DNA of 64,000 nt from an uncultured Myxococcales bacterium. GTDB lineage: Bacteria > Myxococcota_A > UBA9042. The stretch lies in contig CAINLT010000094.1 of NCBI GenBank assembly GCA_903850505.1, positions 2,016-66,015 of the forward strand. The letters run 5' to 3'. Position numbers and translations under genes: made by a program. Under the pieces are notes generated by a model, which worked only from the letters and a program-made list of their open reading frames with translations, searched no databases and was not told the DNA's origin. Of this stretch, positions 3,338 through 46,054 are shown in pieces; the first letter of the stretch is position 1; every line of letters begins with the position of its first letter.

Positions 3338-3355
3338 GGGTCTCGTTTGCTCCGG

Positions 3356-15435: not shown

Positions 15436-15510
<75 letters not shown>

Positions 15511-15561
15511 AATAATCAATAGGGTACGCGACAAACCGACCCAATGCCCCTGCCTGGGTGA

Positions 15562-16137: not shown

Positions 16138-16155
16138 CACGGCAAGGGAGACGGC

Positions 16156-21909: not shown

Positions 21910-21959
21910 CCTTTTCCAGCCACCGCAGCAACACAGTCCGGCATCCGAGGGCATTGGCG

Positions 21960-28668: not shown

Positions 28669-28784
28669 CGTGCGTTTTGCACGCCAATCCTCGGCCAACA
28701 TCCAACAGGCACCGCTTGCTGCCCGCAAGAATCAACCGCTCGTGACACGATTGAAACGATCGTGGCGACGATGCGTTTTTTGGT

Positions 28785-28813
28785 TTGACGCGCAGCCCGG
28801 TCATTTGTACGTT
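28785..28813 (+). promoter_or_regulatory. Possible sigma-70-like promoter of the giant-protein operon
   Basis: TTGACG at 28785-28790, a 17-nt spacer, then TACGTT at 28808-28813, about 40 nt upstream of GTG 28853. This is a pattern match only. Confidence 0.3.
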
Positions 28814-28852
28814 CGCAACGATCGGCGTGCGGACGCGAGCGAAGGGAGCACC

Positions 28853-31800
28853 GTGAAACAGAACAGCCTTTGGGGCGCCCTGCCAAGCTGGGGCGCCGCT
28901 GCCGTGATCACGCTTGTCGCCTGCTTGCCCAGACCAGCCGCAGCCGCGTGCGACGCCAGCCATCCCGCGGAAGGCTGTTGCGCCGGCGAGAAGATCCGCG
29001 GCTGCGACATCTACAACAACAACATCGACGACGACTGCGACATCTACGCCGGCTACCGGTGCGGGCACGACATTACGACGTCGAACACGGTAACTTGCAG
29101 CAGTCCGTCGATTGTCAATTACACGCCGCGCCAGAACGGCGACAACATTTGGTGCCCCGGCTTTTGCCAGTACGGCTGCTCCGGCAACAGCTGCCCGGGC
29201 ACGTGCACCAGCGATCAGACGTGCAACAACGGCACGTGCGTGGCCAGGGCGTGCGGGCATCCGGGCTACCTGCTGGCGTACTGGAATGATGGCACCAGCT
29301 ACAATCCGTCGCCTGGCCCGGCGGACACGGTGGGGCTCGTTTCGCTGGCGTCGACAACCAACCAAAGATATGGCTACGCGGTGCGCGACAACGGCAAGTT
29401 GGCGTATTGGGGCAGCGACTACGACACGCCCGGGATTTTCGGCGACGCGCACAACACCTCGATTACAAACGCGGTTCAAGTCGCGCCGGCCGCGCTCCAC
29501 GTGACGGTTTTGTTGGCGGACGGCACGCTGGTTGCCTGGAATGGTGCCTACGGCTATGCGCCGCCGGGCTATCAGGTCCAGCCGCCATCGAATTTGACGA
29601 CAGCCGGTGCCAACGTGGTCGCCATTGCAGCCGCCGGCGACGCCACCGGGGCGCTGCGCAGCGACGGCAGTATCGTGCTTTGGGGCGCCGACCTGGCGGG
29701 CAAATTCGCGGCGCTGAACGGCAAGACCGGCTTCAAGGGCATCGCGGCCGGCGGCGACCAGAACTTCATCGGCATCAAGACGGACGGCACCATCGTACAG
29801 GCGGCGGCGGACGGCACCCAGGGCAACAACACGTTCCTGCCCGCGCCTGCGGGGTTGAGCGGCGTCGTCCAGGCCGCGATTTCGACGTCGCGCGCCATTG
29901 CCCTCAAGCAGGACGGCACGGTCGTCACCTGGGGTTCGCAAGCCGTCGGCCCGCCCGGCGATTTGAAGCCGTGCCGCGCCGTCGCCGTGGGAGAATTCGC
30001 CTACGCCGACGCGTTCCTGTGCCTCCAGGTCGACGGCACGCTCCGCGTTTGGGGCAGCTACTACAACGTCAACACCGGCAACTGGACCGGCGGCTTTTCA
30101 GCCGGGACGATGGCCGGCATCAACTCGTTCAAAGGCGTCAATTTCCTCGACCCGCACGGCGTCGCCGTCATCTCGTGCACCGGCTCCTGCGGCGCGATCC
30201 CGCCCGACGGCTGCTGCGACGGCGACAAGGTCCACACGTGCAGCCCGCTCGGCGTCGACCAGGTCAGCACCTGCGCGGCCGGCACCTGCGGTTGGCAGAC
30301 GAGCGCGACCGACTACGAATGCAGCACCGCCGGCACCCCCGCGCCTGGCTTGACGCCCCTCCAGAGCTGCATTTGCGTGCCCAGCTGCAAGAACACGGAC
30401 GGCAGCGTCAAGCAGTGCGGCTCGGACGGCTGCGGCGGATCGTGCGACAAGGGCAGCTGCGACGACGGCGATCCCTGCACGATTTCCGACAAATGCAGTG
30501 GCGAAGTGTGCCTCGGCGGCGGCGCCTACAACTGCAGCGACGGCGACCTGTGCACCGACGACGCGTGCAGCAACCAAAGCGGCGCGGCCAAGTGCAGCCA
30601 CACGCCCAACACCGCGCCGTGTGACGACAGCAACGCGTGCACCAGCAACGACGTGTGCAGTTCCGGCAGCTGCGTGGGCGGCTTGGCCATCGACTGCAAC
30701 GACGGCAACGTGTGCAGCGACGACGCGTGCGACCCGGCCCAAGGATGCGTACACCTGGCTAACAGCGCGACGTGCAGCGACGGCAGCGTGTGCACGATCG
30801 GCGACGTGTGCAGCGGTTTGGCATGCCAAGCGGGCGGCGCGGCGCTCGATTGCGCCGATGGCAACGCGTGCACGGTGGACAGCTGCGATGCGACCGCCGG
30901 CTGCCGGCACGTCGACGCCGACCCGAGCACCGTCTGCGACGACAACAGCAACTGCACCGCCAGCGACCACTGCAGCGGCGGCAAGTGCGCGGGCACGTCC
31001 AACGTCAACTGCGACGACAACAACCCGTGCACCAGCGACAACTGCCTGGACCCGAACACCTGCGCGCCGCATGCCGACATCAACGAAAGCGGCGCATGCA
31101 GCGACGGTAACGCGTGCCACGTGGGCGGCAAGTGCATGGCGGGCGCGTGCAGCGGGCTCACGGCGCAGAACTGCGACGACGGCAATCCGTGCACCGACGA
31201 CGGCTGCGATCCCAAGAGCGGCTGCACGCACGGCAACAACGCGGCGGCCTGCAGCGACAACGATACCTGCACCGCGGGCGACGTGTGCGCGGGCGGATCG
31301 TGCATGTCGGGCGCGGTGGTCAATTGCGACGACAAGAACCCGTGCACCGACGACAGCTGCGACAAGGCGCTGGGCTGCCAGCACGTGGCCAACAGCCAGC
31401 CGTGCGACGACAAGAGCGTGTGCACCCAGACCGACACCTGCGCGGCTGGCCTGTGCGTGGGCGGCAACCTGAAGAGCTGCGACGACGGCCAGCTGTGCAC
31501 CAACGACACGTGCAACGCGCTTCTCGGCTGCCAGCATGCGAGCAACACCGCGCCGTGCGACGACGGCAACGCCTGCACCAAGGGCGACAAATGCTGGCAG
31601 GGCGCGTGCGTCGGCGGGGCCACCCCCAGTTGCAACGACGGCAACAGCTGCACCGACGACAGCTGCGACGCGCAAAACGGCTGCGCGTACAAGGCCAACG
31701 CGGTCGTGTGCAGCGACGGCAATCCGTGCACCTTGGGCGACTCATGCTCGCTGGGCAGCTGCAAACCAGGGGCCACTGGGCTCAACTGCGACGACGGCAA

Positions 31801-34800
31801 TCCGTGCACGACCGACGCGTGCATCGCCGGCAAGGGCTGCACCAACACCAACAACAGCCTGGCGTGCGACGACGGCCAGCTGTGCACCGTGAGCGACACC
31901 TGCGCCGGCGGCAAGTGCGTTGGCGCGGCCAAGCCCTGCAGCGACGGCAACAAGTGCACCGACGACCTGTGCGACAACGCCAAGGGCTGCTGGTTCCCGA
32001 ACAACACCGCGCCGTGCGACGACGGCAACGTCTGCACCAGCGGCGACACGTGCGCGGGCGGCAAGTGCCAGACCGGCGCGCCCAACACGGCGGCGTGCGA
32101 CGACGGCAACCTGTGCACGCTGAGTGATACTTGCAGCGGCGGCACGTGCATCGGCGGCGCGACCAAGCCGTGCGACGACGGCAATCCGTGCACGGCCGAC
32201 TACTGCTCGCCCACCGGCGCCGGACCGAGCGGCTGCTACCACGGCAGCTGGGAAAAAACCGGCGCGAGCTGCGATGACAACAACGCGTGCACGGTCAACG
32301 ACGGCTGCAAAGGCGGCGCCTGCGCTGGTGTAAGTGCGTGCTTGAGCGGCAATTGCCAGTTGGTTGGCGGCGCGCCGACGTGCCCGTGTCCGGCCGGCTA
32401 CAAGTCCATCCCGTACGACAACAGCGCGGTCAATTACTGCTGCCACCCCGACTGCAGCAACAAGAGCTGTGGCCCGGACGGCTGCGGCGGTGTGTGCCCC
32501 AACACGTGCACGGACCAGGAAAACTGCAGCTTCGACACGGATTACCACTGCATGCCCAAGACCGCCTGCTACGGCAAGGCGCCCGTCGGCGCGGGCTGCT
32601 GCGTGGGCGATACGCTGTCGCGCTGCTTTGCCCCGAAGGCGCTCTACAGCTGGGACTGCGCGGCGCAAGGCAAGCACTGCGGCTGGAACTCGGGCGACTA
32701 CCAGTACGAATGCACCACTGAAGGCGCGACCGACCCCAGCGGCGCCCACCCGTTCCTCTGCCCCGGCGCCACCTGCACGCCCAACTGCAGCGGCAAGAAC
32801 TGCGGCCCGGACGGCTGCGGCGGCACTTGCGGCACCTGCCAGAGTGAGTGGGTCTGCGACTACAGCGCGGGCAAATGCACCCACCCGTGCGACGGCGTAG
32901 TGCCTCTGCAGGGCTGCGTCGCGGGCCAATTGAACGGCGCGGACGTGGTCGAGTCCTGCCCTGACATGTACGCCAAGGCCAGCGCGGTCGGCCAGAGCGT
33001 GTGCGACCCGCAATTCCCCGCCGCGTGGGATCCCAAGTCCAAGCACATCCTGTGCAGCGCCGGCTACCCCATTCCGGCCGGCGTCACCAAGGCGTGCCCG
33101 GTCCAGGCGTGCAGCTGCGGCATCGGCGTGTTCCACCACAACTGCGGCGACAACGGCTGCGGCGGCTCTTGCGGCACGTGCAGCGGCGCGGACGTCTGCC
33201 ACGACGGCAACTGCTGCACGCCCAACTGCACCGGCAAGGTCTGCGGCGACGACGGTTGCGGCGGCTCCTGCGGCTCCTGTCCCACCGGCAAGCAGTGCAT
33301 GGCCAGCGGCAACTGCGCGGTCCCCGAGTGCGCCGACATGTACGCGCCCACGGGCCAGTGCTACGGCACGCCGGCCAACACCGCGTTCAAGAATTCCGTT
33401 TCGTACTGCACGCAAAATGCGAAGGTTTCGACCGTCTGCCCCGCCGGTTCGTCCATGTGCTTGAACGGAAGCCTCAGCACGTGCATGTTCTCCGAGAGCA
33501 GCTTCAAGTGGCTCAACGGCGGCCTGAGCTGGACGTCGTTTGCCAGCAACTCCTGCGCCGCCCGCATCAGCGAGTTCCAGTGCGCCAAGACCGCGACCGG
33601 CTCCGTCTGCGAATGCGACCCGGGATGCGTGCAGGAAGGCAACTGCTGCCCCGACTACGCGGCGGTGTGCGGGGCCAAGCACAATCCGCAGCAGTGCGGC
33701 GACGGCACGTGCGCCAGCGACCGGGGCGAAACGTGCGAGACGTGCAAGGCGGACTGCGGCGCTTGCACGGCGACGACCAAGCCGGAAGGCCCGTGGGCGA
33801 TGCCGTATCCGGCGTACATCGAGTCGCAAGGCAACCCAGATGCGCGGGCGGTGCGTGCGATTCGGCCGCTGGACGACGTTCGGCCGCAAGTGCCGCCGCT
33901 GCCGCTCGAGGGCCTGGTGGCGTACGTGCCGGGGCTGGATGCCGCGCAGACGGCGCCTGGGGCGCAGGTCAAGGTGCAAGCGGCCAAGGCGGGCGGCGCG
34001 GCGACAGCGCTCAAGACGGGCGGCGTGCAAGGCGACGCGATTTCGTTCAGCAACGCGGCGGACCAGAGCAATGGCGGCGTCGTGAGCATGATTCCGGACG
34101 TGCTGCTGCCCCATGCGGCGAGCTACGCCACGCACCAGCCGGGCGGCGTGACGATCGCGGGCTGGGTACGGACGGCGACGGGTTCGCAGGCGCACCCGAA
34201 CGTGCTCGGGGCCGCGCGCTACCCGGGCACGACCGGCGCGACCAAGTGCACCTGGAGCCGGCCGCAGGAAGCCGCCGCGCCCATCTCGTGCGGCAGCGGC
34301 AAGATCGTGGCCATCCAGGCGTATTACGGCGAGGTGAGCAAGTCCCGCTTTCCGCCCTACACGAACGGCGACCAGAGCCTGTCATCGGCGTCCTGTGACC
34401 TGCTGCCGCAGCTGGAGCCGACCCACAAGTGCGAGGACGCGGCGGTGCAGGCGCTGGCGGAGAAGGCGTGCCTCGGCAAGGCGTCGTGCTGGGTCGATCC
34501 GTGGCCGGAAGCGCTGGATCCGTGCTCGAGCGCGCCGCATAAGCCGATGAAGTCGACGCTGCTGCTGCGCGCGGTGTGCGATGCCGCGACGCCGAATGCG
34601 GGCGCGACGCTGGCGGTGGAAGCGGCAAGCGATGGCGGCCGGCTGCGCTTTGACGCCCCGGGGCTGCCGGCGCTGGTCAGCCAGGGCGAGTTCCCGCAGC
34701 ACGCCTGGACGCACGTGGCGCTCGTGTTTTCGCCGCACAAGGGCTCGCAGGACGGCACGGTGACGCTGTTTGTCAACGGCAGTCCGCAAGCGCAGCTGGA

Positions 34801-37800
34801 AGGCTACGGCTTTCCGCGCTTTTACCAGTGGGATTGGGGTGTTGGCCACGTCGCGGGCGCGGAGGCCGGCTGGGACGGTTTCCTGGATCCGGGCGTCAGC
34901 ACGCAGACGCCGAACCTGACGGGCCATTTCGACCTGGACAACGCGGTGCTGTACGACCGGCCGCTGCAAACGGCGCAGCTGGTGAGCCTCGTCAGCCAGC
35001 CAAACGTGGGGACGGTGCGGGTGTGGCCGGCGTTGGATGCGCCGCGCGTGGCCAAGCTGGGCCTGTGGGCAAATGGGGGCACGCCGGCGACGACGGCCGT
35101 CAAGCTGGATCAGCTGGTGGATCCGACGACGGGCGCCGGGCTTGCCGCGGACTTCCAGGCGCTCACCGTGCCAGGCGGCCAGTTCCAGGCGCCCGCGGAA
35201 GGCAGCGACTTGACCGGCTTGCAGAATTTCGCCGTGGGTTCGTGGATCCGCGCCAGCAGCCTCAGCGCCGGCAGCACCTTGTGGCAGTTCACCCAGGGCT
35301 CGACCACGCGGTTGAAGCTCAGCGTCGACACCACCTGCAGCGGCAGCGGCATCAAGGCGGAAACGGCCAGCGGCACGGTGACTTCCACTACGTGCGCGCA
35401 CGCGCTGCAGGCCAACGCGTGGGCGTTCGTCGCGTACGTCCAGTCCGGCAGCACTGGCAGCGTGTTCATCGACGGCGCGAAGCTCGGCTCCGCCACGGTC
35501 GGCGCACCGCTCTTTGACTCCAGCGGCACGGGCGCGCGCAAGTTCAGCACCGGCGCCGGGGTGGACCTCGGCTGGAGCGCCTTGTACAGCCGGGCCTTGA
35601 CGGCGGACGAACTGACCGCGCAGGCAAGCCAGGGACCCGCCGTGTGGCTCGACGGCTCGTACTTCCAGCCCACGGGCGCAGCAACCGCCAAGCTCCGCGA
35701 TTTCGCCCTCTTCCGCAACGTCGGCACCAGCGCGGTCACCGGCGTCGCGCGGGCCTACGCGAACGGGTCCCAGGTCACCGGCAGCAGCCAGCTCAGCGCG
35801 GCGACCGTCATCGTGCCACGCACCGGCCGCTTCCACGCCGGCGTCGTCAACGGCACTGTCAGTTCGGGCACGACCTCCTACACGTGGGTCGGCACGGTCT
35901 CGGTGGACCCCAAGATCGACAAGACCTACCCGCTCTTCCGGCGCGGCGACGGGACGTACACCGACGACCGGGTGACGCTCGTCTGCACCAAGCTCACGTT
36001 GCAGGACGGCACGGGCGTCGGCTGCCACGTCGACGGCGCGATCCAGTTCACGTACAGCGGGACCGCGCTGCATACGCACGTGTCGTCGGAGACGTTCTCG
36101 CTGGTTTCGGGCGTCCCGCAACCGGTGCGGCTGGCGGTGGCGCTCACTGGCGACACGTTCGCGGCGGCGCTGTCCGTCGCGCCGTCGTCAAATGCCGCGG
36201 CGTTCCAGCTCGGTTTGGGCACGGACACGTTGACGGACCACGCGTCGCACCTGCTGCACATGACCAACCTGGGGCCGCAGACGGAGGCGATGGCGCCGCT
36301 GCTCTTGACCACGCCGTGGGATGGCATCCTGCTCGACGGCGCCACGAGCGACGCTTGGCTGGACATGCGGCTGTACGCGCGGGCGCTGGGCGACGCGGAA
36401 CTGCGGGAAGTGGCGGCGGTCGGCTGTGCGGCGGACGCATGCGACGATCGGCTGCGGACGTGCACGCTGGCCGGACTCGGCGCCGGCGTAAGCTTCATGG
36501 CCCCGGCCGGCCTCGCCACCTGCACCGGCTGCCAGAGCACGGCGTTTGAAGTCAACGCCACGTGCCTGCCCAAGGGCGGCTTCCGGGAAGCCTGCTCGTA
36601 CGCCGACGACTGCGTAAGCGGCCTGTGCGTGCACGGTCACTGCCGCTCCACCAGCGCCGATGCGGACTGCGCCGCCGGCTGCCTGAAGTTGGGCCACGCC
36701 TGCCAGGCCATGACGAGCGGCGGCTACGAATGCGGCCCCGCCTGCCTGACCGACTTCACCGCCGGCGTGTACGCGGCCGACCCGATCTCCGGCGAACAGG
36801 TCCTCGCGTGCGCGTGGCATCCGGCCAAGGACACCCTGGATCGCTGCAGCGCGCACGAGGACTGCGGCTCCGGCGTGTGCTCCGACCAGACGTCCGCCGC
36901 GTACAACGTCACCAACACGGACACCAAGCTCACGGCGCCCGTTTATTCGAACAGCGGCGGCTACGGCGTGAGCACCGGCACCACCGGCCCGCTCGAAACC
37001 TGCACCAGCGCGGACCAGTGCGCCAAGGTCAGCCACACGTCCATCACGGAAAAAGTGTGCGCCGCCGAGACCAACGCCGCATGCGCCGCGCAGCTGATGC
37101 AATCGCGCGTCGTGCACACGACATCGTGGGACGGCACGAGCAAGGACGGCTACGTGTGCGAGGGCTGCCTGAGCGACACCTACCAGGGCGACGCTGGCGA
37201 TCCCAACAACGGCAAACCGCTCTACGTCCAGGGCTGGTCGCTGCTGGCGCCGGACGCGTGCCGCAAGGTGTACGAAAACTACTTCGCGCTTTTGAACAAC
37301 GGCGTGGTCACGGTCGGGTCGAGCAGCTACCACAGCAATTCCGACGGCTGGGAGGATTCGACCCGGCTGGCGAACATGGGCGACATTTTGGCCCATCCGC
37401 CGGAGCTTTCGCGGCTGCGCAAGCTGGTGCTGAACGATGGCAATCCGACCAGCGCGGTGACGCCGGCGATTCTGTCGCAGCTGGAGCAGGCGGGCGTTGG
37501 GCGGCTGCTCCTGGACCCGAACCTCAAGCCGTGGGCGTACGACTACGGGTTTTATCCCACGGCCTTCAACGGCTATTTGGAAACCTCCCTGCGGCCGGCG
37601 CAGAACCGGCTCGGCGACTGCGCGCGCAAATCCTACGATTTCACCAACTACGAAGGCTGGCCCGGCGGCCACGTGACCAAGACGCCGTACTACGACCGCG
37701 ACGTGAACCGGCCGGTGTGCCTGGAAAACAAGTTCCCCAACGGCGCGACCTGCCCGCCCGCCAGCACGGTCAAGACGTACACGCGAGCCAACTCCGGGCT

Positions 37801-39007
37801 TTTCTGCGCCAGCGGCTTCTGCGCGGTGGACGGCAAGGACTGCGAGGAAGGCTACGCGGTCTATGAGGAAACCCACGGCGGTCAGCGCAACGACGGCAAG
37901 TCCGGCGGCGGCGGCAATGATCTCGGCCAGATCGCGCTCGTGCAGGACAACGGCTCGACGTTCCGCTTCGACAAGGTCGACGAAACGACCGTCACGCTGG
38001 AGTCGGGCACGACCGACCACCGGCACATTTACCTGGAAGGCCACAGCAAGAACAGCGTCAACATCTTTGGCTGGGTGGCGGACGTGCTGGACCTGCAAGT
38101 GTCGGCGATTGAAGTGCCGGGCGCGGCGGACGACGGCGACAAGGCCCAGGTGGCGCAGGAATTCCTGATTTGCGGCGTGCAGCCCCCGAGCCTGCCCGCG
38201 CTGCCCAAGTCTTCGTGCGGCGCGGCGCAGTTCGAGAACGGCGAGTACAAGGCGCCGACGTGCCACATGACCAAGGAGCCAATTGGCGTGTCGGTTTCGC
38301 ACACGGCCAAGAAGCACAAGAACGGCACGACGAAGGAGTCCGAGTCGGGCATCGAAGTCACCGGCGGCGACCTGGTGCCGACGATCACTTTCCACGTGCC
38401 GCTGCCGCTGCAGGAATGTCCGGAGGAGGAAGGCTTCCACGCCGTGTTCGGCCGCGTGTGCTTCTCCAAGCAGACGACGGTCGGGCCGGTGCCGTTCAAG
38501 GTGGAGGCGGAAATCAAGCCGGAGGCCACGGTCGAGCTGGGCGTAGAGCTGGATTCGGAGACGTTCGAGCCGGCCGCGAAGATCAAGCCCGCGGTCGCCC
38601 TGACGCTGGAAGTCAAAGGCGGCGTCGGCGGTGAAATCGGGCCGGTGGAGATCTTCGCGGGCTTGAAGGGCGTCATCACCATCATCGAAGCCGCGCTGCC
38701 GGTGACGTTCGGTTTTGAATTTGAGCAGGTGACCGATGCAAGCAACAATGAAATCACGGATCTGTGGATCGTCTCCAAGGTCGTCAAGGTCAACTTCGAG
38801 CTGACATTCCTCAAGCTGGCGCTCAGCGTGTTCTTCGAAGTCGGCGTCGGGCCGTTCAAGGTGGAGCTGGAATACAGCTTCTTCGAGTTCGAGGGTATCG
38901 AGCTGTCGTGGGACCTCGGCGACCTGGCGGCGGAGCAGTACAAAGTGGACTTCCAGTGGGATCCCTATTCGACGTCGACCACCTCGGGTCACGGAGGTAC
39001 GCCATGA
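28853..39007 (+). CDS. Giant (3384 aa) secreted Cys-rich mosaic protein. Modules: RCC1-like propeller, CTxDxC repeat array, CGxDGCGGxCGxC modules, somatomedin-B-like module, SUEL-lectin-like module, LamG-like regions, Cys-free C-terminal domain.
   Basis: I place the start at GTG 28853, with GGGAG 5 nt upstream, giving a signal peptide (M)KQNSLWGALPSWGAAAVITLVACLPRPAAAA. Propeller blades read GKLAYWGSDY, GTLVAWNGAYG, GSIVLWGADLAG, GTVVTWGSQAVG, GTLRVWGSYY. The remaining modules are detailed under findings. It is a single uninterrupted frame of 10155 nt. Confidence 0.9.
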   Translation: MKQNSLWGALPSWGAAAVITLVACLPRPAAAACDASHPAEGCCAGEKIRGCDIYNNNIDDDCDIYAGYRCGHDITTSNTVTCSSPSIVNYTPRQNGDNIWCPGFCQYGCSGNSCPGTCTSDQTCNNGTCVARACGHPGYLLAYWNDGTSYNPSPGPADTVGLVSLASTTNQRYGYAVRDNGKLAYWGSDYDTPGIFGDAHNTSITNAVQVAPAALHVTVLLADGTLVAWNGAYGYAPPGYQVQPPSNLTTAGANVVAIAAAGDATGALRSDGSIVLWGADLAGKFAALNGKTGFKGIAAGGDQNFIGIKTDGTIVQAAADGTQGNNTFLPAPAGLSGVVQAAISTSRAIALKQDGTVVTWGSQAVGPPGDLKPCRAVAVGEFAYADAFLCLQVDGTLRVWGSYYNVNTGNWTGGFSAGTMAGINSFKGVNFLDPHGVAVISCTGSCGAIPPDGCCDGDKVHTCSPLGVDQVSTCAAGTCGWQTSATDYECSTAGTPAPGLTPLQSCICVPSCKNTDGSVKQCGSDGCGGSCDKGSCDDGDPCTISDKCSGEVCLGGGAYNCSDGDLCTDDACSNQSGAAKCSHTPNTAPCDDSNACTSNDVCSSGSCVGGLAIDCNDGNVCSDDACDPAQGCVHLANSATCSDGSVCTIGDVCSGLACQAGGAALDCADGNACTVDSCDATAGCRHVDADPSTVCDDNSNCTASDHCSGGKCAGTSNVNCDDNNPCTSDNCLDPNTCAPHADINESGACSDGNACHVGGKCMAGACSGLTAQNCDDGNPCTDDGCDPKSGCTHGNNAAACSDNDTCTAGDVCAGGSCMSGAVVNCDDKNPCTDDSCDKALGCQHVANSQPCDDKSVCTQTDTCAAGLCVGGNLKSCDDGQLCTNDTCNALLGCQHASNTAPCDDGNACTKGDKCWQGACVGGATPSCNDGNSCTDDSCDAQNGCAYKANAVVCSDGNPCTLGDSCSLGSCKPGATGLNCDDGNPCTTDACIAGKGCTNTNNSLACDDGQLCTVSDTCAGGKCVGAAKPCSDGNKCTDDLCDNAKGCWFPNNTAPCDDGNVCTSGDTCAGGKCQTGAPNTAACDDGNLCTLSDTCSGGTCIGGATKPCDDGNPCTADYCSPTGAGPSGCYHGSWEKTGASCDDNNACTVNDGCKGGACAGVSACLSGNCQLVGGAPTCPCPAGYKSIPYDNSAVNYCCHPDCSNKSCGPDGCGGVCPNTCTDQENCSFDTDYHCMPKTACYGKAPVGAGCCVGDTLSRCFAPKALYSWDCAAQGKHCGWNSGDYQYECTTEGATDPSGAHPFLCPGATCTPNCSGKNCGPDGCGGTCGTCQSEWVCDYSAGKCTHPCDGVVPLQGCVAGQLNGADVVESCPDMYAKASAVGQSVCDPQFPAAWDPKSKHILCSAGYPIPAGVTKACPVQACSCGIGVFHHNCGDNGCGGSCGTCSGADVCHDGNCCTPNCTGKVCGDDGCGGSCGSCPTGKQCMASGNCAVPECADMYAPTGQCYGTPANTAFKNSVSYCTQNAKVSTVCPAGSSMCLNGSLSTCMFSESSFKWLNGGLSWTSFASNSCAARISEFQCAKTATGSVCECDPGCVQEGNCCPDYAAVCGAKHNPQQCGDGTCASDRGETCETCKADCGACTATTKPEGPWAMPYPAYIESQGNPDARAVRAIRPLDDVRPQVPPLPLEGLVAYVPGLDAAQTAPGAQVKVQAAKAGGAATALKTGGVQGDAISFSNAADQSNGGVVSMIPDVLLPHAASYATHQPGGVTIAGWVRTATGSQAHPNVLGAARYPGTTGATKCTWSRPQEAAAPISCGSGKIVAIQAYYGEVSKSRFPPYTNGDQSLSSASCDLLPQLEPTHKCEDAAVQALAEKACLGKASCWVDPWPEALDPCSSAPHKPMKSTLLLRAVCDAATPNAGATLAVEAASDGGRLRFDAPGLPALVSQGEFPQHAWTHVALVFSPHKGSQDGTVTLFVNGSPQAQLEGYGFPRFYQWDWGVGHVAGAEAGWDGFLDPGVSTQTPNLTGHFDLDNAVLYDRPLQTAQLVSLVSQPNVGTVRVWPALDAPRVAKLGLWANGGTPATTAVKLDQLVDPTTGAGLAADFQALTVPGGQFQAPAEGSDLTGLQNFAVGSWIRASSLSAGSTLWQFTQGSTTRLKLSVDTTCSGSGIKAETASGTVTSTTCAHALQANAWAFVAYVQSGSTGSVFIDGAKLGSATVGAPLFDSSGTGARKFSTGAGVDLGWSALYSRALTADELTAQASQGPAVWLDGSYFQPTGAATAKLRDFALFRNVGTSAVTGVARAYANGSQVTGSSQLSAATVIVPRTGRFHAGVVNGTVSSGTTSYTWVGTVSVDPKIDKTYPLFRRGDGTYTDDRVTLVCTKLTLQDGTGVGCHVDGAIQFTYSGTALHTHVSSETFSLVSGVPQPVRLAVALTGDTFAAALSVAPSSNAAAFQLGLGTDTLTDHASHLLHMTNLGPQTEAMAPLLLTTPWDGILLDGATSDAWLDMRLYARALGDAELREVAAVGCAADACDDRLRTCTLAGLGAGVSFMAPAGLATCTGCQSTAFEVNATCLPKGGFREACSYADDCVSGLCVHGHCRSTSADADCAAGCLKLGHACQAMTSGGYECGPACLTDFTAGVYAADPISGEQVLACAWHPAKDTLDRCSAHEDCGSGVCSDQTSAAYNVTNTDTKLTAPVYSNSGGYGVSTGTTGPLETCTSADQCAKVSHTSITEKVCAAETNAACAAQLMQSRVVHTTSWDGTSKDGYVCEGCLSDTYQGDAGDPNNGKPLYVQGWSLLAPDACRKVYENYFALLNNGVVTVGSSSYHSNSDGWEDSTRLANMGDILAHPPELSRLRKLVLNDGNPTSAVTPAILSQLEQAGVGRLLLDPNLKPWAYDYGFYPTAFNGYLETSLRPAQNRLGDCARKSYDFTNYEGWPGGHVTKTPYYDRDVNRPVCLENKFPNGATCPPASTVKTYTRANSGLFCASGFCAVDGKDCEEGYAVYEETHGGQRNDGKSGGGGNDLGQIALVQDNGSTFRFDKVDETTVTLESGTTDHRHIYLEGHSKNSVNIFGWVADVLDLQVSAIEVPGAADDGDKAQVAQEFLICGVQPPSLPALPKSSCGAAQFENGEYKAPTCHMTKEPIGVSVSHTAKKHKNGTTKESESGIEVTGGDLVPTITFHVPLPLQECPEEEGFHAVFGRVCFSKQTTVGPVPFKVEAEIKPEATVELGVELDSETFEPAAKIKPAVALTLEVKGGVGGEIGPVEIFAGLKGVITIIEAALPVTFGFEFEQVTDASNNEITDLWIVSKVVKVNFELTFLKLALSVFFEVGVGPFKVELEYSFFEFEGIELSWDLGDLAAEQYKVDFQWDPYSTSTTSGHGGTP
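30458..32340 (+). repeat. Array of about 16 double Cys-repeat units (about 38-39 aa, 115 nt period) inside the giant gene
   Basis: Two half-units alternate. One is C.DGN.CT.D.C....GC.H, for example CDDGNPCTDDGCDPKSGCTH. The other is C.D...CT.GD.C..G.C.GG, for example CSDNDTCTAGDVCAGGSCMSG. They repeat from CDDGDPCTISDKC to CDDNNACTVNDGCKGGAC. Confidence 0.85.
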
Positions 39008-40935
39008 AGCGGTGGCAAATAGCGACGGCGGCGCTCGTTGTAACCGGCGTCCTGGGTGCGGTGTGGTACTGGCAGAACGCCGCCGCGCGCACGGAAGTGA
39101 CGGTCGACGCCGCGGCGAAAGTGCCCCACCCAGCGGCGGCGACGGCTGCGGGCAAGGCTCAGCCTGACGCTCAGGGCACGGGCGGTGATGCGTACGCCCT
39201 CGACTACAGCTTTGAGATGACGGCGCCGTTTGCCAACGCTGCGGATCAGACGCTGCACCTGCACGTGACGGGCACGCTGGAGCTGGGCGCCGCGCAGCCC
39301 GACGCGGACGGGGCGTGGCAGCCGGCGCGTCTGGTGGCCGGGCATGTCGAACAGGACGCCGTGGCCGCACGCGTGCTGGACTGGTCGCTGCCGGGCGTGG
39401 AGGCGGAGCTGGCGCGGCCGTTTGCGTTCCACCTGCAAAAAGACGGCCGGGTCGATGCGGTGCGCTGCGATCCGACTCTGGCTTTTGCCACCCGCTCGAC
39501 ACTGGCGGGCGCCGCTTGGGCCATCCAACACGTGCATCCAGCCACCGCGGCGGCGACGTGGCAGCTGGAGGAGCGCGACGCCAATGGCACCTATCAGGCG
39601 AAGTACCGTCAGGCGGCGGCGGGCGTGGTCGAAAAAACCTGGCAAATTGGCCAGAACGGCGACGATCCGGCGCGGCTGGCGCAGGTCTCGAACGGCAGCG
39701 CGCGGTATGCCGTGAACGCGCATGGCCTGGAAACCATGACGTGGGCGCTCTCGGGCACGGCCGCGACCGGTTCGCTGGATCCGGCCAAGTACAAGCCGTT
39801 TGCCCTCAAGATTGGCCTCACGCGCACGGGCGCGGTGGACGCAGCGTGGGCCGCGACGATCCGCCCGGAGGCGCTGCAGCCGTTCACGTCCGCGAGCGCG
39901 AAAGTCCGGCAGCGTCTGGAAGCGCCGACGCGGCCGCTGGATACGGTCCTGGCCGACGTGGCGCAGAAGGCCGAGCACCTGGATCCGTCCGGTCACGTGA
40001 CGCTGCGGGACGAATTGACGCGCGCGGTGCGCCAGGATGCGGATGGTCCGGCGAAGTTGGCGGCGCAGTTGCGGCAGGATGCTGCACCGGGCGAGGCGCG
40101 CAGGCTCGCGGTCGAGGCGCTGATTGGCGCGCGGACGGAACCGGCGCAGGAGATGGCGGCGCAGCTGATGGCGGACGAGACGCTCGCGCAGCCCGTGCGG
40201 CAGGAACTGCTGGCGGCGGCGGCGTTCATGTCGAGCCCGACGGTCGCGTTTGTCACGTCGCTGGAGAAGCTCGCGTACAACCCGCGCGCGTCGACGGTCA
40301 GCGCGGATGCGGCCACGACGCTGGGGGCTGCCGTCGCCTTTCTGGCCGAAAAGAACCCGCAGGCGGCCCGACCGGTCCTGGAGCGCCTGATCGCCAACGC
40401 TGGACCGGTGCTCGGGCGTCCGACCGCCAAACACGCGCAGCCCTTGGCCGTGCGCATGGCCTGGCTGGCAGGCCTCGGCAATACCGGCGACGCGGCGACG
40501 CTGTCGCTGATTCTGCAGGCGCTGGGCGACAAGGACGAGTTCGTGCGCGGCGCGGCGGCGCTGGCTTTGCGGCGACAGGACCCCGCAGCGGTGGCGACGC
40601 CGCTCATCGATCGAATGGCGATTGAAACGTCGGCCCACACGCGGGCGCGGCTGGTCGACGCGGCGCGCTTCCTGGGCCCGGACAAGCTGGGCGAGCTGGT
40701 GGAAAAGGCGCTGCGCTACGACCGCAGCGAGCACGTGCGGCTGGCGGCGGCCTACGCGATGACAGTGTGGTCGACTGCGGCGCCGGGGCTGCGCAAGACG
40801 TTGGTGGACGCGCTCAAGCACGAGAAGTCGCCCAAGGTCGCGGCGGCGCTGCAGCATGACATCAACCAGGGCCAGGTCGATCCGGGGGTCGCGGTCAAAT
40901 CCGTGCACATGGGCGGAGCGGGGGCGACACCATGA
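39004..40935 (+). CDS. N-terminally membrane-anchored protein with C-terminal HEAT-like repeats
   Basis: ATG 39004 overlaps the stop of the giant gene (ATGA). The TM anchor is MKRWQIATAALVVTGVLGAVWYW. HEAT-like repeats read LGNTGDAATLSLILQALGDKDEFVRGAAALALRR and ALRYDRSEHVRLAAAYAM. The part of track ORF 38764 upstream of 39004 lies out of frame inside the giant gene. Confidence 0.8.
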   Translation: MKRWQIATAALVVTGVLGAVWYWQNAAARTEVTVDAAAKVPHPAAATAAGKAQPDAQGTGGDAYALDYSFEMTAPFANAADQTLHLHVTGTLELGAAQPDADGAWQPARLVAGHVEQDAVAARVLDWSLPGVEAELARPFAFHLQKDGRVDAVRCDPTLAFATRSTLAGAAWAIQHVHPATAAATWQLEERDANGTYQAKYRQAAAGVVEKTWQIGQNGDDPARLAQVSNGSARYAVNAHGLETMTWALSGTAATGSLDPAKYKPFALKIGLTRTGAVDAAWAATIRPEALQPFTSASAKVRQRLEAPTRPLDTVLADVAQKAEHLDPSGHVTLRDELTRAVRQDADGPAKLAAQLRQDAAPGEARRLAVEALIGARTEPAQEMAAQLMADETLAQPVRQELLAAAAFMSSPTVAFVTSLEKLAYNPRASTVSADAATTLGAAVAFLAEKNPQAARPVLERLIANAGPVLGRPTAKHAQPLAVRMAWLAGLGNTGDAATLSLILQALGDKDEFVRGAAALALRRQDPAAVATPLIDRMAIETSAHTRARLVDAARFLGPDKLGELVEKALRYDRSEHVRLAAAYAMTVWSTAAPGLRKTLVDALKHEKSPKVAAALQHDINQGQVDPGVAVKSVHMGGAGATP

Positions 40936-43082
40936 TGCGCTTTGTATGGGCGTTGGCGATTCTGTGCGCGGCATGCGGCCACACGGCGAGCACTTCGTGC
41001 GGCGCGGGCGCCATCGAGGTGGACGGCCAGTGCGTGCCCGACCCGAACGCGCTGGCGTGTGGCGCGGGCACGGTCGCGGATGGCGGCGTGTGCTATCCGG
41101 CAAACGGCGGTCCAGACGCAACTGCGGACGAAGTGGGCGGGCTCGACGCGTCGGACTCCGGTGAAGTGGCAGACGCCTTGGTGGGCGACATTCCGTGCCA
41201 GCCCAACTGCGCCGGAAAGCAATGCGGCGACGACGGCTGTGGCGGGACTTGCGGGGCATGCGCATCGGCCGCGGCACCCATCTGCAACTCGATCGGCGTG
41301 TGCGTCGCTTCCTGCACTGCGGAATGCACCGGCAAGACCTGCGGCGACGACGGCTGCGGCGGCGTGTGCGGCATGTGCGGCACGGACAGCGGCTGCAGCA
41401 GCATTGGCCAGTGCGTACCTAAAGCCTGGACCTGCAACGCGCTCTATTTTGGCGCCGGCGACGCGTGCGACTGTGCGTGCGGCGGCTATGACCCCGACTG
41501 CAAGGACCCCGAGGCGCCGCTGGCCGGCTGCGGCTCGCTGCAAAAATGCGACGCGGCAGGCAAATGCGTCGACAAGAACCCGGCCGGCTGGACCTGCGCG
41601 CCCACGAGCTACGACGCGCTGGACGGCTGCGACTGCGGCTGCGGCGTGCCCGATCCGGACTGCGCGGTGGCAACTTTGCCCGTCATTGGCTGCAAGACCG
41701 GCGAAGCCTGCAGCACCGCAGGCGCATGCGTGGCGTGCGTTCCCGCGTGCAATGGCAAGAATTGTGGCCCCGACGGCTGCGGCGGCTCGTGCGGTTCCTG
41801 CGGCGAGGGCGCCGTCTGCGACGCGGGCACGTGCGCCGACCCCTGCAAGCCCACGCCCATCGCCTGCAAATACGCGACCTGCGGCGACGACGGCTGCGGC
41901 GGATCCTGTGGCACATGCGCGGCCGGCAAGACGTGCGACGGCGGCACGTGTGTTGTCGTCGGCCTGCCGGAAGCGCCGACCTCGTGCGTGGGCCACTGCG
42001 GCAGCACCGCGCTTTCCGGCTGCTCCTGCGCGCCAAAATGCGTCGCCAACGGCACCTGCTGCGACGACTACAGCGCTGTGTGCACCTGCAAGCCGGACTG
42101 CACCGGCAAGGCGTGCGGCCCCAACGGCTGCGGCGGCACGTGCGGCACCTGCGGCGGCAACGCGCCTTGGTGCGACGCGACCGGCCAGTGCAGCGCGACG
42201 TGCACCAAACAGTGCACCGGCAAAGCGTGTGGCGACGACGGCTGCGGCGGCACGTGCGGCCAGTGCGGCGCGGACAGCGTGTGCTCGACCTACAGCCAAT
42301 GCGTGCCCACCGCGTGGCAATGCCCCATCCCGTACTTCGCCGACGGCATCGCGTGCGACTGCGGCTGCGGCGCGCCCGATCCCGACTGCGCCATTGCCAA
42401 GGTCCTGACGTTTGGCTGCCCCACCTCGACCACCGCATGCGATGCCACGACCGGCTTGTGCAAATCCACGTTCTGTAAGTCCGACACGACGTGCGGCAGT
42501 CAAGCGTGCGTGGGCCTGTATGCCACCGGCGGCGGCGGGTACGGCGGAGTCTGTGGCGCGCAAACCAGCGGCGGCAAGAACATGGGCCAACTCTGCGCCT
42601 CCGCGGGCGAATGCAAAAGCAGCGTGTGCTTGGGCGGCCTGTGCCGGCAATTCTGCCAGACCGACGGCGAGTGCCCCGGCCAGTTGAAGTGCCTCGCGCT
42701 GCCCGTCACCGGCCCGGCGAACGCGGTCGTGGGCTTGACCGGAGTGTGCGAGGCTGTGAATGGCTCCGGCGGCGCGTGCACCAAGCAGGCGGACTGCACC
42801 GCGTTTGGCGAATCGTGCCAAGCCTTCGCCGACGCCAAGACCTTCCAGCCGCGCTACCTGTGTGCCATCGGCAGCAAGACGTCCGGGGCCAAGTGCGGCC
42901 TGCAAGCGTGCGGCGCGGGCCAGTTCTGCGTCGCGGATAGCGCGGGCAAGCACTGCGGCGCCGCGTGTCCAGGCGGGAGCAGCGACTGCACGAGCGGAAC
43001 CTGCGGCACGACGACGTTCAACAACGCCGGGACGAACGCGCCCGCCGACGATCCGAAGGTGCCTGTATGCGTGCAGCCGTGA
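40932..43082 (+). CDS. Cys-rich secreted lipoprotein with CGxDGCGGxCGxC, W.C...DxCDCGCG..DPDC and somatomedin-B-like modules
   Basis: ATG 40932 overlaps the preceding stop (ATGA). The lipobox is MMRFVWALAILCAACGH. There are six CxGKxCG(D/P)(D/N)GCGGxCGxC modules and three DxCDC(G/A)CG..DPDC modules. One 8-Cys module reads SCVGHCGSTALSGCSCAPKCVANGTCCDDYSAVC. Confidence 0.85.
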   Translation: MMRFVWALAILCAACGHTASTSCGAGAIEVDGQCVPDPNALACGAGTVADGGVCYPANGGPDATADEVGGLDASDSGEVADALVGDIPCQPNCAGKQCGDDGCGGTCGACASAAAPICNSIGVCVASCTAECTGKTCGDDGCGGVCGMCGTDSGCSSIGQCVPKAWTCNALYFGAGDACDCACGGYDPDCKDPEAPLAGCGSLQKCDAAGKCVDKNPAGWTCAPTSYDALDGCDCGCGVPDPDCAVATLPVIGCKTGEACSTAGACVACVPACNGKNCGPDGCGGSCGSCGEGAVCDAGTCADPCKPTPIACKYATCGDDGCGGSCGTCAAGKTCDGGTCVVVGLPEAPTSCVGHCGSTALSGCSCAPKCVANGTCCDDYSAVCTCKPDCTGKACGPNGCGGTCGTCGGNAPWCDATGQCSATCTKQCTGKACGDDGCGGTCGQCGADSVCSTYSQCVPTAWQCPIPYFADGIACDCGCGAPDPDCAIAKVLTFGCPTSTTACDATTGLCKSTFCKSDTTCGSQACVGLYATGGGGYGGVCGAQTSGGKNMGQLCASAGECKSSVCLGGLCRQFCQTDGECPGQLKCLALPVTGPANAVVGLTGVCEAVNGSGGACTKQADCTAFGESCQAFADAKTFQPRYLCAIGSKTSGAKCGLQACGAGQFCVADSAGKHCGAACPGGSSDCTSGTCGTTTFNNAGTNAPADDPKVPVCVQP

Positions 43083-46054
43083 AGCAAGTTGGATGGGTGC
43101 TGCTGGCTCTGCTTGCGGCGTGCGGCGGCGGCAAGAGCGGACCTGAATGCGGACCGGGCACGGCGCTGCACGATGGCCAGTGCGTGCCGATCGCCGCGGG
43201 AATCGACGCCTGCGGGCCGGGGACGGCGCTGGACGGCTCCACGTGCGTGCCGGAAGGGGAGCCTGATGCGGGTGCAACGGACGTCGGACCTGACGCGCAA
43301 GTCGATGCGGCCGGCGATGCAACGGCTGTGACGTGTTCGCCGGCGTGCGGCAAGGGCCAATACTGCGATGAACTGGGCGCGTGCCAAACCAACCCGCTGC
43401 CCGCCAGCTGGACTTGCGCCAAGGCGGTCTGGGCGGACGGCGCGACCTGCGACTGCGGCTGCGGTGCCTTCGACCCCGACTGCGCCAACGCCACCTGGCC
43501 CGTAAGCGGCTGCCCCGGCGCCAAGGCCTGCCAGGACGACGGCAAGTGCCCCGCCTGCACCCCCGCCTGCACCGGCAAGTCCTGCGGCGACGACGGGTGC
43601 GGCGGCTCGTGCGGCGCGTGCCTCGATCCCGCCAAGCCAGTGTGCAGCGGCGGCCAGTGCAGCGCGTGCGTCCCCAACTGCAGCGACAAGTCCTGCGGCG
43701 ACGACGGGTGCGGCGGCTCGTGCGGCGCGTGCGCCACCGGCAAAATGTGCGCGGCGGGCGCGTGCGTCTTTCCGCCGCCCAGCCTGTCGTGCGTCGGCCA
43801 TTGCGGCGGCGAGCCCGGCGGCGGCTGTTCCTGCACGGCCGCGTGCCAAGCCAAAGGCAACTGCTGCGTGGACGTCGGCGTCTGCGGCTGCCTCCCCAAC
43901 TGCGCCGGCAAGGACTGCGGCGACGACGGCTGCGGCGGCACCTGCGGCATCTGTCCCGGCGGCTCGACATGCGTGGCGTCGATCTGCGCCGTTGGCGAAT
44001 GCACGGACGCCACGTGCTCCGGCAACGGCACCTGCGCCGGCTTGGGCTGCGCGTGCCAGCCCGGTTACGCTGGCAAGTTCTGCGACCAGTGCGCCGCCGG
44101 CTACGTGAACTATCCGGACTGCGTGACGGCCTGCGCGAGCGTCCTGGAATGCAACGACGGCAATCCGTGCACCGCGGACGCATGCAGCGCCAAGTCCGGC
44201 TGCACGCACTTGCCCACGGACGCCACCTGCACCGACGGCAGCGCCTGCACCAGCGGCGACGCGTGCGTCCTGGGCGCTTGCGAACCGACATTGACCACCG
44301 GCTGCGACGACGCCGACCCGTGCACTGCCGACGCGTGCGACCCGGCCGTCGGCTGCAGCCATTTGCCCGGCGGCATCACAGCGTGCGACGACGGCAACGC
44401 ATGCACCGGCAACGACAGCTGCGCCAATGGCTCGTGCGCGGGCTCGCCCGTGGGCTGCGACGACGGGAACGTGTGCAGCGCGGACAGTTGCGATGCCGGC
44501 AGTGGCTGCGTCCATCTGGGCACCGGCGCGACCTGCACCGACGGCGACGCGTGCTCGCTCGGCGGCGTGTGCAACGGCATAACCTGCACCAGCGTCGGGG
44601 CGAAATCGTGCGACGACGGCAACGGCTGCACCTTGGACGTGTGCGACGGCGGGCAGGGCGCATGCGTCCACACGCCCGCGAGCGCCACGACGGCCTGCGA
44701 CGACGACGACCTCTGCACCAGCGGCGAGATGTGCGACGGCAACGGCCAGTGCGGCGGCGGGGCCAAGATCTGCGCCATGCCAACGGTCGGTGGGCTCGTC
44801 GGGCACTACAGCGCCGCGCAGCCGAGTTCGCTCAACCTCGACGCGGCGCAGCACGTCGTCGCGTGGCAGGATCAGGGCGGCGCGGGGCGGACGTTGACGG
44901 CCATCGATGTGCAGCAGGCGCCGCAGCTCGTGCCGGCGGGAATTCACGGCCGGCGCGCGCTGCTTCTGACCGGCGCGGGACTTGCCAGCGAGGCGTACGC
45001 GGATTCCGGCGCGGTCAGCCTGTTTGCGGTCGTGTGCACGCCAGCAAGCGGCAGCAGCAATTTCGTCGGTCATGGCGGCACCTGGGCGCTGGCAAGTGCC
45101 CCGACGGCCCTTGCGTTCCAGGGCGGCGGCGGCAGCATCCAGGGCGCAGCTTCTGGGGACTCGTGCTACGTCGTTGCGGCGCGCGTGGGCCCGGGCGGCG
45201 GCGATCTGCTGTTGGCAACCGGTACGTCCAGCCTTGCCACTGACCTGAGCCTCGTCCCGACGGCCACGACCGCAGCGCTAGCCATCGGCGACGGCGGCGG
45301 CCTGATCGGCGAACTGCTCGTGTATGACGGCAAAGTGGCCGACGCTGACCGCGACGCGCTGGTCAATTACCTGCGCACCGCGTGGGGTTTCGAGCCGCCG
45401 CAGCCGGACTTTGTCTGGTACGAAGCAGGGGACACGCCCACGGTGCAGACCGACGACGCCGGCAACGTCAGCCAGTGGAAAGACAAAAGCATGCTGAATC
45501 GGCACGCGCTCCTCGGTGCGGCGACGGCGCCCGTGTGGTACGCGAACGGAACTTCCAATGGCCGGCCGGCGCTGCGCTTTGACGGCGCCAACGTGCTCTT
45601 GCAAACGGCGGCGATTCCGGGCGTGGTGCAATTGACCGCGTTTGTCGTGTGCGAGCTTGATGCCCCGGCGGCGGCTGGCAGCGTGTTCGCGCAAGGGCAG
45701 GACAGTCATTTCGCGCTGCGCAAGGACGAGTCGGCCGCGACGCCGGCGTTGGCGTGGAGCGTGGGACAGGATCCGGCGGTGGCGTCGGCGTCCTACACGG
45801 CTGGGAAGTGGGCGGTGTACGTCGCGGTGCAGGACGGCACCAGCGCGCTGCTCGGGAATGGCAGCCTCACCGCGACGGGCCAGTCCAGCGCAGCGATTCC
45901 GGCGGCGTCCGAGGTCCTCACCCTCGGCAACGCCAAGGCCGGCGGCGCATCGATGGGTGGCTTCCTCGCGGAAATTCGCGCTTACGCCGAGACGCTCGCG
46001 CCCATCGACCGCGCGTTCGTGCAAGGTCTGCTGCGCACGAAATACGGCCTTTAG
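43067..46054 (+). CDS. Cys-rich secreted lipoprotein with EGF-like and CTxDxC repeats and two C-terminal LamG-like domains
   Basis: ATG 43067 lies 16 nt inside the preceding gene. The lipobox is VGWVLLALLAACGGG. An EGF/laminin-EGF-like block reads CSGNGTCAGLGCACQPGYAGKFCDQC. CTxDxC repeats span roughly 44150-44760. LamG-like hallmarks are GELLVYDGKVADADRDALVNYL and GFLAEIRAYAETLAPIDRAFV. Confidence 0.85.
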   Translation: MRAAVKQVGWVLLALLAACGGGKSGPECGPGTALHDGQCVPIAAGIDACGPGTALDGSTCVPEGEPDAGATDVGPDAQVDAAGDATAVTCSPACGKGQYCDELGACQTNPLPASWTCAKAVWADGATCDCGCGAFDPDCANATWPVSGCPGAKACQDDGKCPACTPACTGKSCGDDGCGGSCGACLDPAKPVCSGGQCSACVPNCSDKSCGDDGCGGSCGACATGKMCAAGACVFPPPSLSCVGHCGGEPGGGCSCTAACQAKGNCCVDVGVCGCLPNCAGKDCGDDGCGGTCGICPGGSTCVASICAVGECTDATCSGNGTCAGLGCACQPGYAGKFCDQCAAGYVNYPDCVTACASVLECNDGNPCTADACSAKSGCTHLPTDATCTDGSACTSGDACVLGACEPTLTTGCDDADPCTADACDPAVGCSHLPGGITACDDGNACTGNDSCANGSCAGSPVGCDDGNVCSADSCDAGSGCVHLGTGATCTDGDACSLGGVCNGITCTSVGAKSCDDGNGCTLDVCDGGQGACVHTPASATTACDDDDLCTSGEMCDGNGQCGGGAKICAMPTVGGLVGHYSAAQPSSLNLDAAQHVVAWQDQGGAGRTLTAIDVQQAPQLVPAGIHGRRALLLTGAGLASEAYADSGAVSLFAVVCTPASGSSNFVGHGGTWALASAPTALAFQGGGGSIQGAASGDSCYVVAARVGPGGGDLLLATGTSSLATDLSLVPTATTAALAIGDGGGLIGELLVYDGKVADADRDALVNYLRTAWGFEPPQPDFVWYEAGDTPTVQTDDAGNVSQWKDKSMLNRHALLGAATAPVWYANGTSNGRPALRFDGANVLLQTAAIPGVVQLTAFVVCELDAPAAAGSVFAQGQDSHFALRKDESAATPALAWSVGQDPAVASASYTAGKWAVYVAVQDGTSALLGNGSLTATGQSSAAIPAASEVLTLGNAKAGGASMGGFLAEIRAYAETLAPIDRAFVQGLLRTKYGL
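43577..43732 (+). repeat. Exact 45-nt direct duplication, with copies starting 111 nt apart
   Basis: aagtcctgcggcgacgacgggtgcggcggctcgtgcggcgcgtgc occurs at 43577-43621 and identically at 43688-43732. It encodes KSCGDDGCGGSCGAC. Confidence 0.9.

Follow-up and report, generated by a model that had tools for sequence, protein, structure and literature searches.

Large lipid transfer proteins (LLTPs) such as vitellogenin, apoB and MTP underlie yolk formation and the assembly of lipoproteins. In MTP, the C-sheet precedes an A-sheet whose strands are twice as long, held by a helical clamp and a barrel; in MTP and in lipovitellin, the C- and A-sheets form the lipid cavity (PMC6717300). The literature on LLTPs and vitellogenin-like proteins that was retrieved deals with animals only (e.g., PMC1783640, PMC6717300), which, the search having been limited, is absence of evidence. 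Here we describe an operon of four genes, A to D, from an uncultured Myxococcales bacterium. It lies in a window of 64,000 nucleotides (contig CAINLT010000094.1 of assembly GCA_903850505.1, positions 2,016 to 66,015 of the forward strand), by which the whole stretch analyzed is meant and whose G+C content is about 67%. Gene A (28853..39007, + strand) encodes a Cys-rich protein of 3384 aa, and gene B, which follows directly, encodes a protein whose predicted structure resembles the N-terminal module of LLTPs. We tentatively propose, with somewhat less than even confidence, that the C-terminus of A joins with B to form a split, LLTP-like unit that binds lipid and is carried on a lectin-rich stalk.

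Compared with Pfam, B matched HEAT_2 and, at 23.4 bits against a cut-off of 24, Vitellogenin_N (residues 351-528 on profile positions 343-529). Seven of the 10 B orthologues also matched Vitellogenin_N at E ≤ 1, with a best value of 3.6e-6. In a search of the PDB sequences, the profile of the B family aligned collinearly with the large subunit of MTP (E = 1e-3; profile positions 138-558 on MTP residues 98-534), and MTP remained the top match, at a weak E-value of 0.12, after the HEAT-rich end had been removed. The AlphaFold model of B comprises a helix (residues 2-26), a disordered linker, a beta domain (60-279) enclosing a further helix (161-173), and 18 helices; it ends in helices and a 20-residue tail, without C- and A-sheets. 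When this model was compared with the PDB using Foldseek, the ten best matches were all LLTPs, including MTP (E = 5.9e-16), lamprey lipovitellin (E = 3.9e-15, template modeling (TM) score 0.58, 638 columns), apoB100 and honey-bee vitellogenin. The isolated apoB barrel was also among them (E = 1.7e-7), and generic HEAT and alphaRep proteins appeared only from E = 1e-5 onward. Because of these Pfam, profile and Foldseek matches, we regard B as structurally homologous to the N-terminal module of LLTPs, i.e., to its beta-barrel and helical clamp. As in the LLTPs, a beta-barrel surrounds an inner helix, and the domain that comes next consists of about 17-18 helices in two layers. Unlike them, B is bacterial, carries an N-terminal hydrophobic anchor and has a single Cys, so that it lacks the conserved disulfides of LLTPs; a vWD domain is likewise missing, and the lipid-binding sheets that follow the helical domain in the same chain of a complete LLTP were not found in B.

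The C-terminal beta region of A (aa 2991-3384) defines the protein family to which A is assigned below and stands at the extreme C-terminus throughout that family. It was modeled with AlphaFold as part of aa 2526-3384, using 17 sequences (predicted local distance difference test score (pLDDT) 69.6 overall). The model begins with a well-predicted beta-rich region (aa 2555-2825, pLDDT mostly 75-92) and a partly helical stretch, which are followed by five strands of 9-15 residues (aa 3004-3106) and then by seven strands of 11-33 residues (aa 3213-3366). The latter are amphipathic, with hydrophobic and charged residues in alternation (for example, mean hydropathy +3.1 vs. -2.8). A conserved K-[VIL]-D-F-x-aromatic motif is found near the C-terminus of the family; the tails beyond it measure 2-40 residues, and some contain extra Cys pairs. 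The approximately 900 residues of aa 2526-3384 had no match in Pfam, NCBIfam or the PDB sequences: the NCBIfam scan of A matched nothing, PDB sequence searches with the C-terminal 865 aa of A and with the family profile yielded nothing, and a Pfam search with 17 C-terminal regions of the family, allowing E-values up to 10, returned no LLTP-sheet, outer-membrane protein (OMP), autotransporter or toxin family. Foldseek searches of the model against the PDB and BFVD gave no match at E = 1e-3 or better. The best E-values were those of outer-membrane barrels, at low probability; the sole high-probability PDB match was MTP (probability 0.77, E = 1.3e-2, TM-score 0.11), and the matches other than MTP did not exceed a probability of 0.28.

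In the proposed unit, the amphipathic sheets at the C-terminus of A would dock into the barrel and clamp of B, and the two proteins would form a split LLTP-like cavity in which lipid or another hydrophobic cargo could be bound. Glycans of a target surface would be bound by the lectin and propeller domains of A, which would sit on a rigid, disulfide-stapled stalk, and the lipoproteins C and D, which consist of the same modules, would serve as accessory parts of the 'giant' versions of the system. That A and B constitute a bacterial LLTP distributed over two genes, with the barrel and clamp in B and the cavity sheets in A, is possible, if less than probable. It is supported by the lack of sheets in B and by the predicted amphipathic sheets of A, in which short strands precede long ones as expected for C- and A-sheets (PMC6717300). 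MTP being the sole high-probability PDB match of the A model also speaks for it. Several points weigh against it. The link between the A C-terminus and the LLTP sheets is non-significant at the Foldseek values given above, and the top E-values of the same model went to outer-membrane barrels. Pfam and PDB sequence searches, including those with the family profile, gave no signal for this part of A, and the homology of the sheets is unproven. The model of A is moderately confident (pLDDT 69.6 overall, 60-83 in the sheets), and that of B (pLDDT 76.5) is based on an alignment of five sequences only. The order is permuted, in that the putative sheets are encoded upstream of the barrel and clamp and on a separate polypeptide, unlike in any known LLTP. 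No lipid-metabolism genes were found near the operon, and A-B contact and lipid binding are only inferred. Finally, the N-terminal anchor of B suggests attachment to the inner membrane, which is hard to reconcile with an adhesin that faces outward, unless the envelope is bridged by other components. If the proposal is true, the unit, mounted on a glycan-binding stalk, would extend LLTP-type lipid-binding machines beyond animals for the first time and would bear on the origin of the animal lipoprotein system. The bacterial barrel-plus-clamp gene provides a prokaryotic relative for testing the origin of the LLTP fold (ancient vs. horizontal transfer) and its minimal working unit.

The C-terminal beta region could also serve as an anchor. 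Like the type V autotransporter adhesins, A is a giant protein with a signal peptide, binding domains and an all-beta C-terminal domain, and it might be a surface adhesin or matrix protein held by an outer-membrane beta-barrel, as are autotransporters and intimin; B would then be a periplasmic, inner-membrane-tethered scaffold or chaperone that binds protein, not lipid. We regard this as unlikely. The location of the beta region at the extreme C-terminus of signal-peptide-bearing giants agrees with such an anchor, the K-[VIL]-D-F-x-aromatic motif near the end recalls the OMP beta-signal, and the best Foldseek E-values belong to porins, the intimin beta-domain, FapF, ushers and phage-encoded autotransporter beta-domains. 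However, none of these fold matches is significant (E = 1e-3 or worse, probability ≤ 0.28, TM-score ≤ 0.15), and the 17 family members examined gave no Pfam autotransporter or OMP match at E-values up to 10. The strands of 17-33 residues far exceed membrane-spanning length, and the chain does not end with the motif but continues for 2-40 residues, in some members with Cys pairs. Moreover, the passenger is too disulfide-rich for the type V route: by what is established about this kind of secretion, a chain that contains 248 Cys and whose propeller is folded cannot cross a 12-strand barrel. As a candidate type V autotransporter, A was ranked lower for the lack of a matching autotransporter hidden Markov model, the excessive strand length, the C-terminal tails and the extreme Cys content.

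The split LLTP-like unit is also supported by the gene order. The ATG of gene B overlaps the stop codon of gene A (ATGA, 4 nt), and a B-type gene follows A directly not only in the window but in each of the 11 related loci whose sequence could be read downstream of A. Among these loci, B identity ranges from 23 to 59%, and some are core-only versions, i.e., versions in which A consists of its conserved core and genes C and D are absent; an overlap of start and stop codons, or near-abutment, of A and B is usual among them. The order A-B-C-D recurs around the A relatives P0003, P0030, P0017 and P0046, the P0012 locus has A-B-C followed by a shorter D-like gene (425 aa), and the core-only relatives have A-B. 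In the fragmentary loci L001, L002 and L012, a gene begins at or just past the end of A, which for L012 was found to be B-like by tblastn. We infer that the minimal conserved system consists of the A core and B. Alternatively, A might simply belong to the many large extracellular proteins, rich in Cys, that serve in adhesion or in the matrix and have no functional coupling to B; the adjacency of the two genes would then reflect shared regulation only. In line with this, the modules of A recur in several neighboring genes, and its recognizable domains are generic binding domains only. Such independence is nevertheless quite unlikely in view of the unbroken succession of A and B across that range of identity, core-only loci included, the usual overlap or near-abutment of the two genes, and the fact that the family-defining part of A is the C-terminal beta region, which adjoins B.

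Improbable, too, is a role of A as a secreted, lectin-targeted pore-forming toxin whose long hairpins would enter the target membrane, with B as a chaperone or immunity protein that keeps A soluble until release. Lectin domains such as LamG and SUEL are common targeting modules, and their presence in A would suit a toxin, as would the amphipathic hairpins of 20-33 residues, which have the length of the transmembrane hairpins of pore formers. The membrane attack complex and pleurotolysin pores occurred among the low-ranking Foldseek matches, but at probabilities of at most 0.10, and no MACPF, aerolysin or other toxin family was matched. In addition, the C-terminal domain is conserved across the family and not polymorphic, and B is membrane-anchored and far larger than typical immunity proteins.

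The frame of gene A is real and represents neither a repeat collapse nor a pseudogene, because the + strand is open from 28670 to 39007 as a single frame without interruption, the G+C content at third codon positions (GC3) is 0.89, DNA repeats are few, and a collinear orthologue exists. The gene itself extends over 10,155 nt without a stop codon, and its GTG start at 28853 is located 7 nt past AAGGGAG, a putative ribosome-binding site. The public NCBI/ENA record, a contig of 66,517 bp, holds an identical product of 3384 aa with an identical start call. Tandem Repeats Finder detected two short imperfect DNA arrays in the gene (74-81% matches), and an orthologue from an unrelated metagenome (P0003, 3390 aa) aligned with A in one collinear high-scoring segment pair (aa 15-3384 on 47-3390, 59% identity). 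An artefact of repeat mis-assembly, collapse or pseudogene formation, which the repetitive modules and the metagenome-type assembly might have led one to expect, can therefore be practically discounted, since the frame is free of stops with a high GC3, the DNA repeats are short and imperfect, and an independent orthologue is collinear from end to end. The single intact frame reported in the initial annotation is thus upheld, including against the collapse of repeats that it had named as a risk, and the selection on the product that it had deduced from the size of the gene is supported by the conservation of the whole frame in the orthologue. The product contains 248 Cys, 199 of them within the first 1645 residues, and is predicted to be exported and heavily disulfide-bonded. 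The final Cys is aa 3203: the C-terminal domain, described at first as Cys-free, lacks Cys in its last 181 aa (3204-3384) and has five in aa 3107-3203, making it Cys-poor.

An exhaustive HMMER search with aa 2520-3384 of A found 69 cluster representatives, 28 of them at E < 1e-30. A single-sequence word-index search had found only two relatives, and none with the family alignment; scans of the GTDB species genomes with the A C-terminus and with the B alignment detected no relative, and a metagenome scan added one locus (L012). Iterated comparison within the 69-member set (jackhmmer) delimited a conserved unit of about 1740 aa, corresponding to A aa 1646-3384. Approximately 30 family proteins of 1500-1700 aa consist of this core alone behind a signal peptide, and 15 proteins of 2500-3850 aa carry N-terminal extensions with varying numbers of RCC1, GCC, CGxDGCGG and CTDC modules; signal-peptide-like starts are found in most full-length relatives. 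Judged from these comparisons, A belongs to an uncharacterized family in which the core is fixed and the N-terminal half is modular and variable, and its own aa 1-1645 are best described as a lineage-variable Cys-rich extension. The initial annotation listed the modules of one mosaic protein correctly and with almost all coordinates as found here, but overlooked this two-part construction and did not extend to the translationally coupled, LLTP-like gene B downstream. Its remark that the combination is unusual for bacteria was overstated: besides the 69 representatives, 15 of which have 2500-3850 aa and the same Cys modules, two more genes of the operon contain them. Even under an ordinary reading of A, the family is new and well supported and comprises secreted giants of lectin-like character, with A as its founding example; its 69 cluster representatives, its approximately 900 core residues without a Pfam model and its core-plus-accessory logic make it of interest in its own right.

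Two related loci contain interrupted A-type genes. In L007 (1-11607), a gap of 42 nt separates a 1777-aa gene, cut off by the start of the contig, from a downstream 2076-aa gene with the conserved core only; this split giant gene is consistent with the N-terminal extension being a separable add-on. In GCA_038135435.1 (L001), the orthologue is broken by a run of N (941-950, a scaffold gap), and the deposited P0001 (1260 aa) is therefore a fragment; the frame upstream of the gap matches aa 1800-2109 of A from the window.

The positions of all modules of A and of genes B to D are summarized in Table 1. The Pfam scan had to be performed by segments, as a scan of the whole protein returned two families only. 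The propeller is supported by RCC1_2 (27.5 bits, cut-off 22) and by a match of the region to yeast RCC1 in the PDB (E = 3.6e-4); WD40_RLD covered profile positions 101-329 of 363 with 42.8 bits, under its cut-off of 150. Dicty_CTDC matched aa 536-1146 (E = 4.7e-22, 77.9 bits, cut-off 27), with 10 stretches at a threshold of 0.1 and 12 at a looser one, and a regular expression counted 24 half-units. Regular expressions also located five copies of CGxDGCGGxC (aa 522, 1206, 1317, 1431 and 1464) and three of GCCxG[DE] (aa 41, 453 and 1248). Somatomedin_B scored 31.9 bits (cut-off 23.1) over profile positions 5-39 of 40, and its CC-x-D Cys motif (CECDPGCVQEGNCCPDYAAVC) begins at aa 1586 (nt 33608).

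Table 1. Features of protein A and of the genes that follow it in the operon (positions in the window)
Feature	Position (nt)	Strand	Basis
GTG start and predicted signal peptide (aa 1-32)	28853..28948	+	read from sequence; possible lipobox LVAC
N-terminal Cys-rich region with first GCCxGE module (aa 33-135)	28949..29257	+	regular expression; no Pfam match
RCC1-like beta-propeller (aa 174-407), 6-7 blades counted by eye	29372..30073	+	RCC1_2, WD40_RLD, PDB
Second GCC module and one CGSDGCGGSC module (aa 442-535)	30176..30457	+	regular expression
Dicty_CTDC array (aa 536-1165), 24 half-units = 12 double units of ~51 aa	30458..32347	+	Pfam and regular expression
Four CGxDGCGGxC modules and third GCC module (aa 1166-1500)	32348..33352	+	regular expression; no Pfam match
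Somatomedin-B domain (aa 1575-1608)	33575..33676	+	Pfam Somatomedin_B
Start of core; first LamG-like domain (aa 1646-2060) with SUEL-type insert (aa 1799-1909, nt 34247-34579)	33788..35032	+	Laminin_G_3, SUEL_Lectin; boundary by jackhmmer
Second LamG domain (aa 2113-2254)	35189..35614	+	Laminin_G_3
Third beta-rich segment (aa 2270-2525)	35660..36427	+	sequence reading; family conservation; no Pfam match
Cys-spaced region (aa 2526-2800) and partly helical region (aa 2801-2990)	36428..37822	+	family conservation, AlphaFold
Family-defining C-terminal beta region (aa 2991-3384)	37823..39007	+	conservation, model, hydrophobic alternation
Gene B, 643 aa: N-terminal hydrophobic helix, disordered linker, beta-barrel with inner helix, 18 helices	39004..40935	+	Pfam, AlphaFold, Foldseek
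Gene C, predicted lipoprotein, 716 aa, 110 Cys	40932..43082	+	overlaps stop codon of B by 4 nt
Gene D, predicted lipoprotein, 995 aa: CGxDGCGG modules, Dicty_CTDC, C-terminal LamG	~43067..46054	+	Pfam, motifs

Laminin_G_3 was matched in two stretches of A (aa 1919-2012, 34.3 bits; aa 2113-2254, 36.5 bits; cut-off 27.6), each scored as a segment; in the scan of the whole protein, the two together gave 52.7 bits. SUEL_Lectin scored 17.6 bits at aa 1845-1893, below its cut-off of 31.4, and reached 52.9 and 74.3 bits at the aligned positions of the relatives P0040 and P0039, respectively; the SUEL-type insert of A thus appears genuine but diverged. In P0040, the SUEL segment is followed by a Laminin_G_3 match beginning at profile position 43, and the lectin is therefore nested within the first LamG domain. 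Many core-only members do not have the insert, and one further family member has a strong SUEL domain (E = 2.2e-21) elsewhere in the chain. In comparison with described LamG and SUEL-lectin proteins, A shares two Pfam-supported Laminin_G_3 domains and a SUEL-type insert that occupies the same position in its relatives, and differs in the nesting of the lectin and in its divergence below the Pfam cut-off. The third beta-rich segment, taken as the third LamG-type sandwich of the core, closes with LYxRALxxxEL, a motif that also ends both LamG domains.

The HMM-based check of the modules did not refute the mosaic outlined in the initial annotation. The RCC1-like propeller, the somatomedin-B-like module and the one plus four CGxDGCGGxC modules were all recovered, and the LamG region interrupted by a SUEL-type lectin holds for two LamG domains, whereas the lectin is weak in A and strong at the aligned position in relatives. 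The CTxDxC array is real, at 12 double units instead of about 16. A 'Cys knot-like' N-terminal region was not supported; what lies there is a GCC module resembling the two found further along the chain. Described Dictyostelium-type CTDC proteins and Cys-rich mosaics of high-GC bacteria resemble A in its Dicty_CTDC array, a repeat also found in neighboring genes, but in A the array is an optional N-terminal add-on that about 30 relatives lack. The CGxDGCGGxC, GCCxGD and CDCGCGxxDPDC modules are abundant and appear to have no family model.

Genes C and D are composed of the same modules as the N-terminal half of A. Gene C had no match in Pfam; it contains six CGxDGCGGxC modules, three CDCGCGxxDPDC modules and one somatomedin-B-like module, and is kept at full length in five related loci (46-68% identity). 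The N-terminal part of gene D is conserved in related loci. A D-type gene of locus L010 (14213-18028) shows matches to Fibrinogen_C and EGF_laminin, further animal-like extracellular modules, beside Dicty_CTDC.

Approximately 5 kb upstream of the operon, a Cys-rich open reading frame (ORF) (21759-23411, +) has 70 Cys in 550 aa and a Dicty_CTDC match (E = 3e-11). Directly upstream of A lies a gene for an NTP_transf_8 nucleotidyltransferase (27280-28323, +; E = 4.7e-36), followed by a 94-aa ORF (28385-28668, +) that by eye has the look of an XRE-type helix-turn-helix protein; the two may form a toxin-antitoxin-like pair. A tRNA-Gly(CCC) gene (15436-15510, +; ARAGORN; Rfam 71.4 bits) is located antisense within a 2439-aa ORF (9775-17094, -) in which no UvrA/ABC domain is matched before about aa 627. 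This ORF is therefore probably over-extended; the product of the real gene, with about 1800 aa and several ABC modules, would be unusually long for a UvrA-like protein. Past the operon, a putative GxGYxYP glycoside hydrolase is encoded on the opposite strand (46274-48067, -), and a CHASE2 sensor histidine kinase is found further downstream (50921-52939, +).

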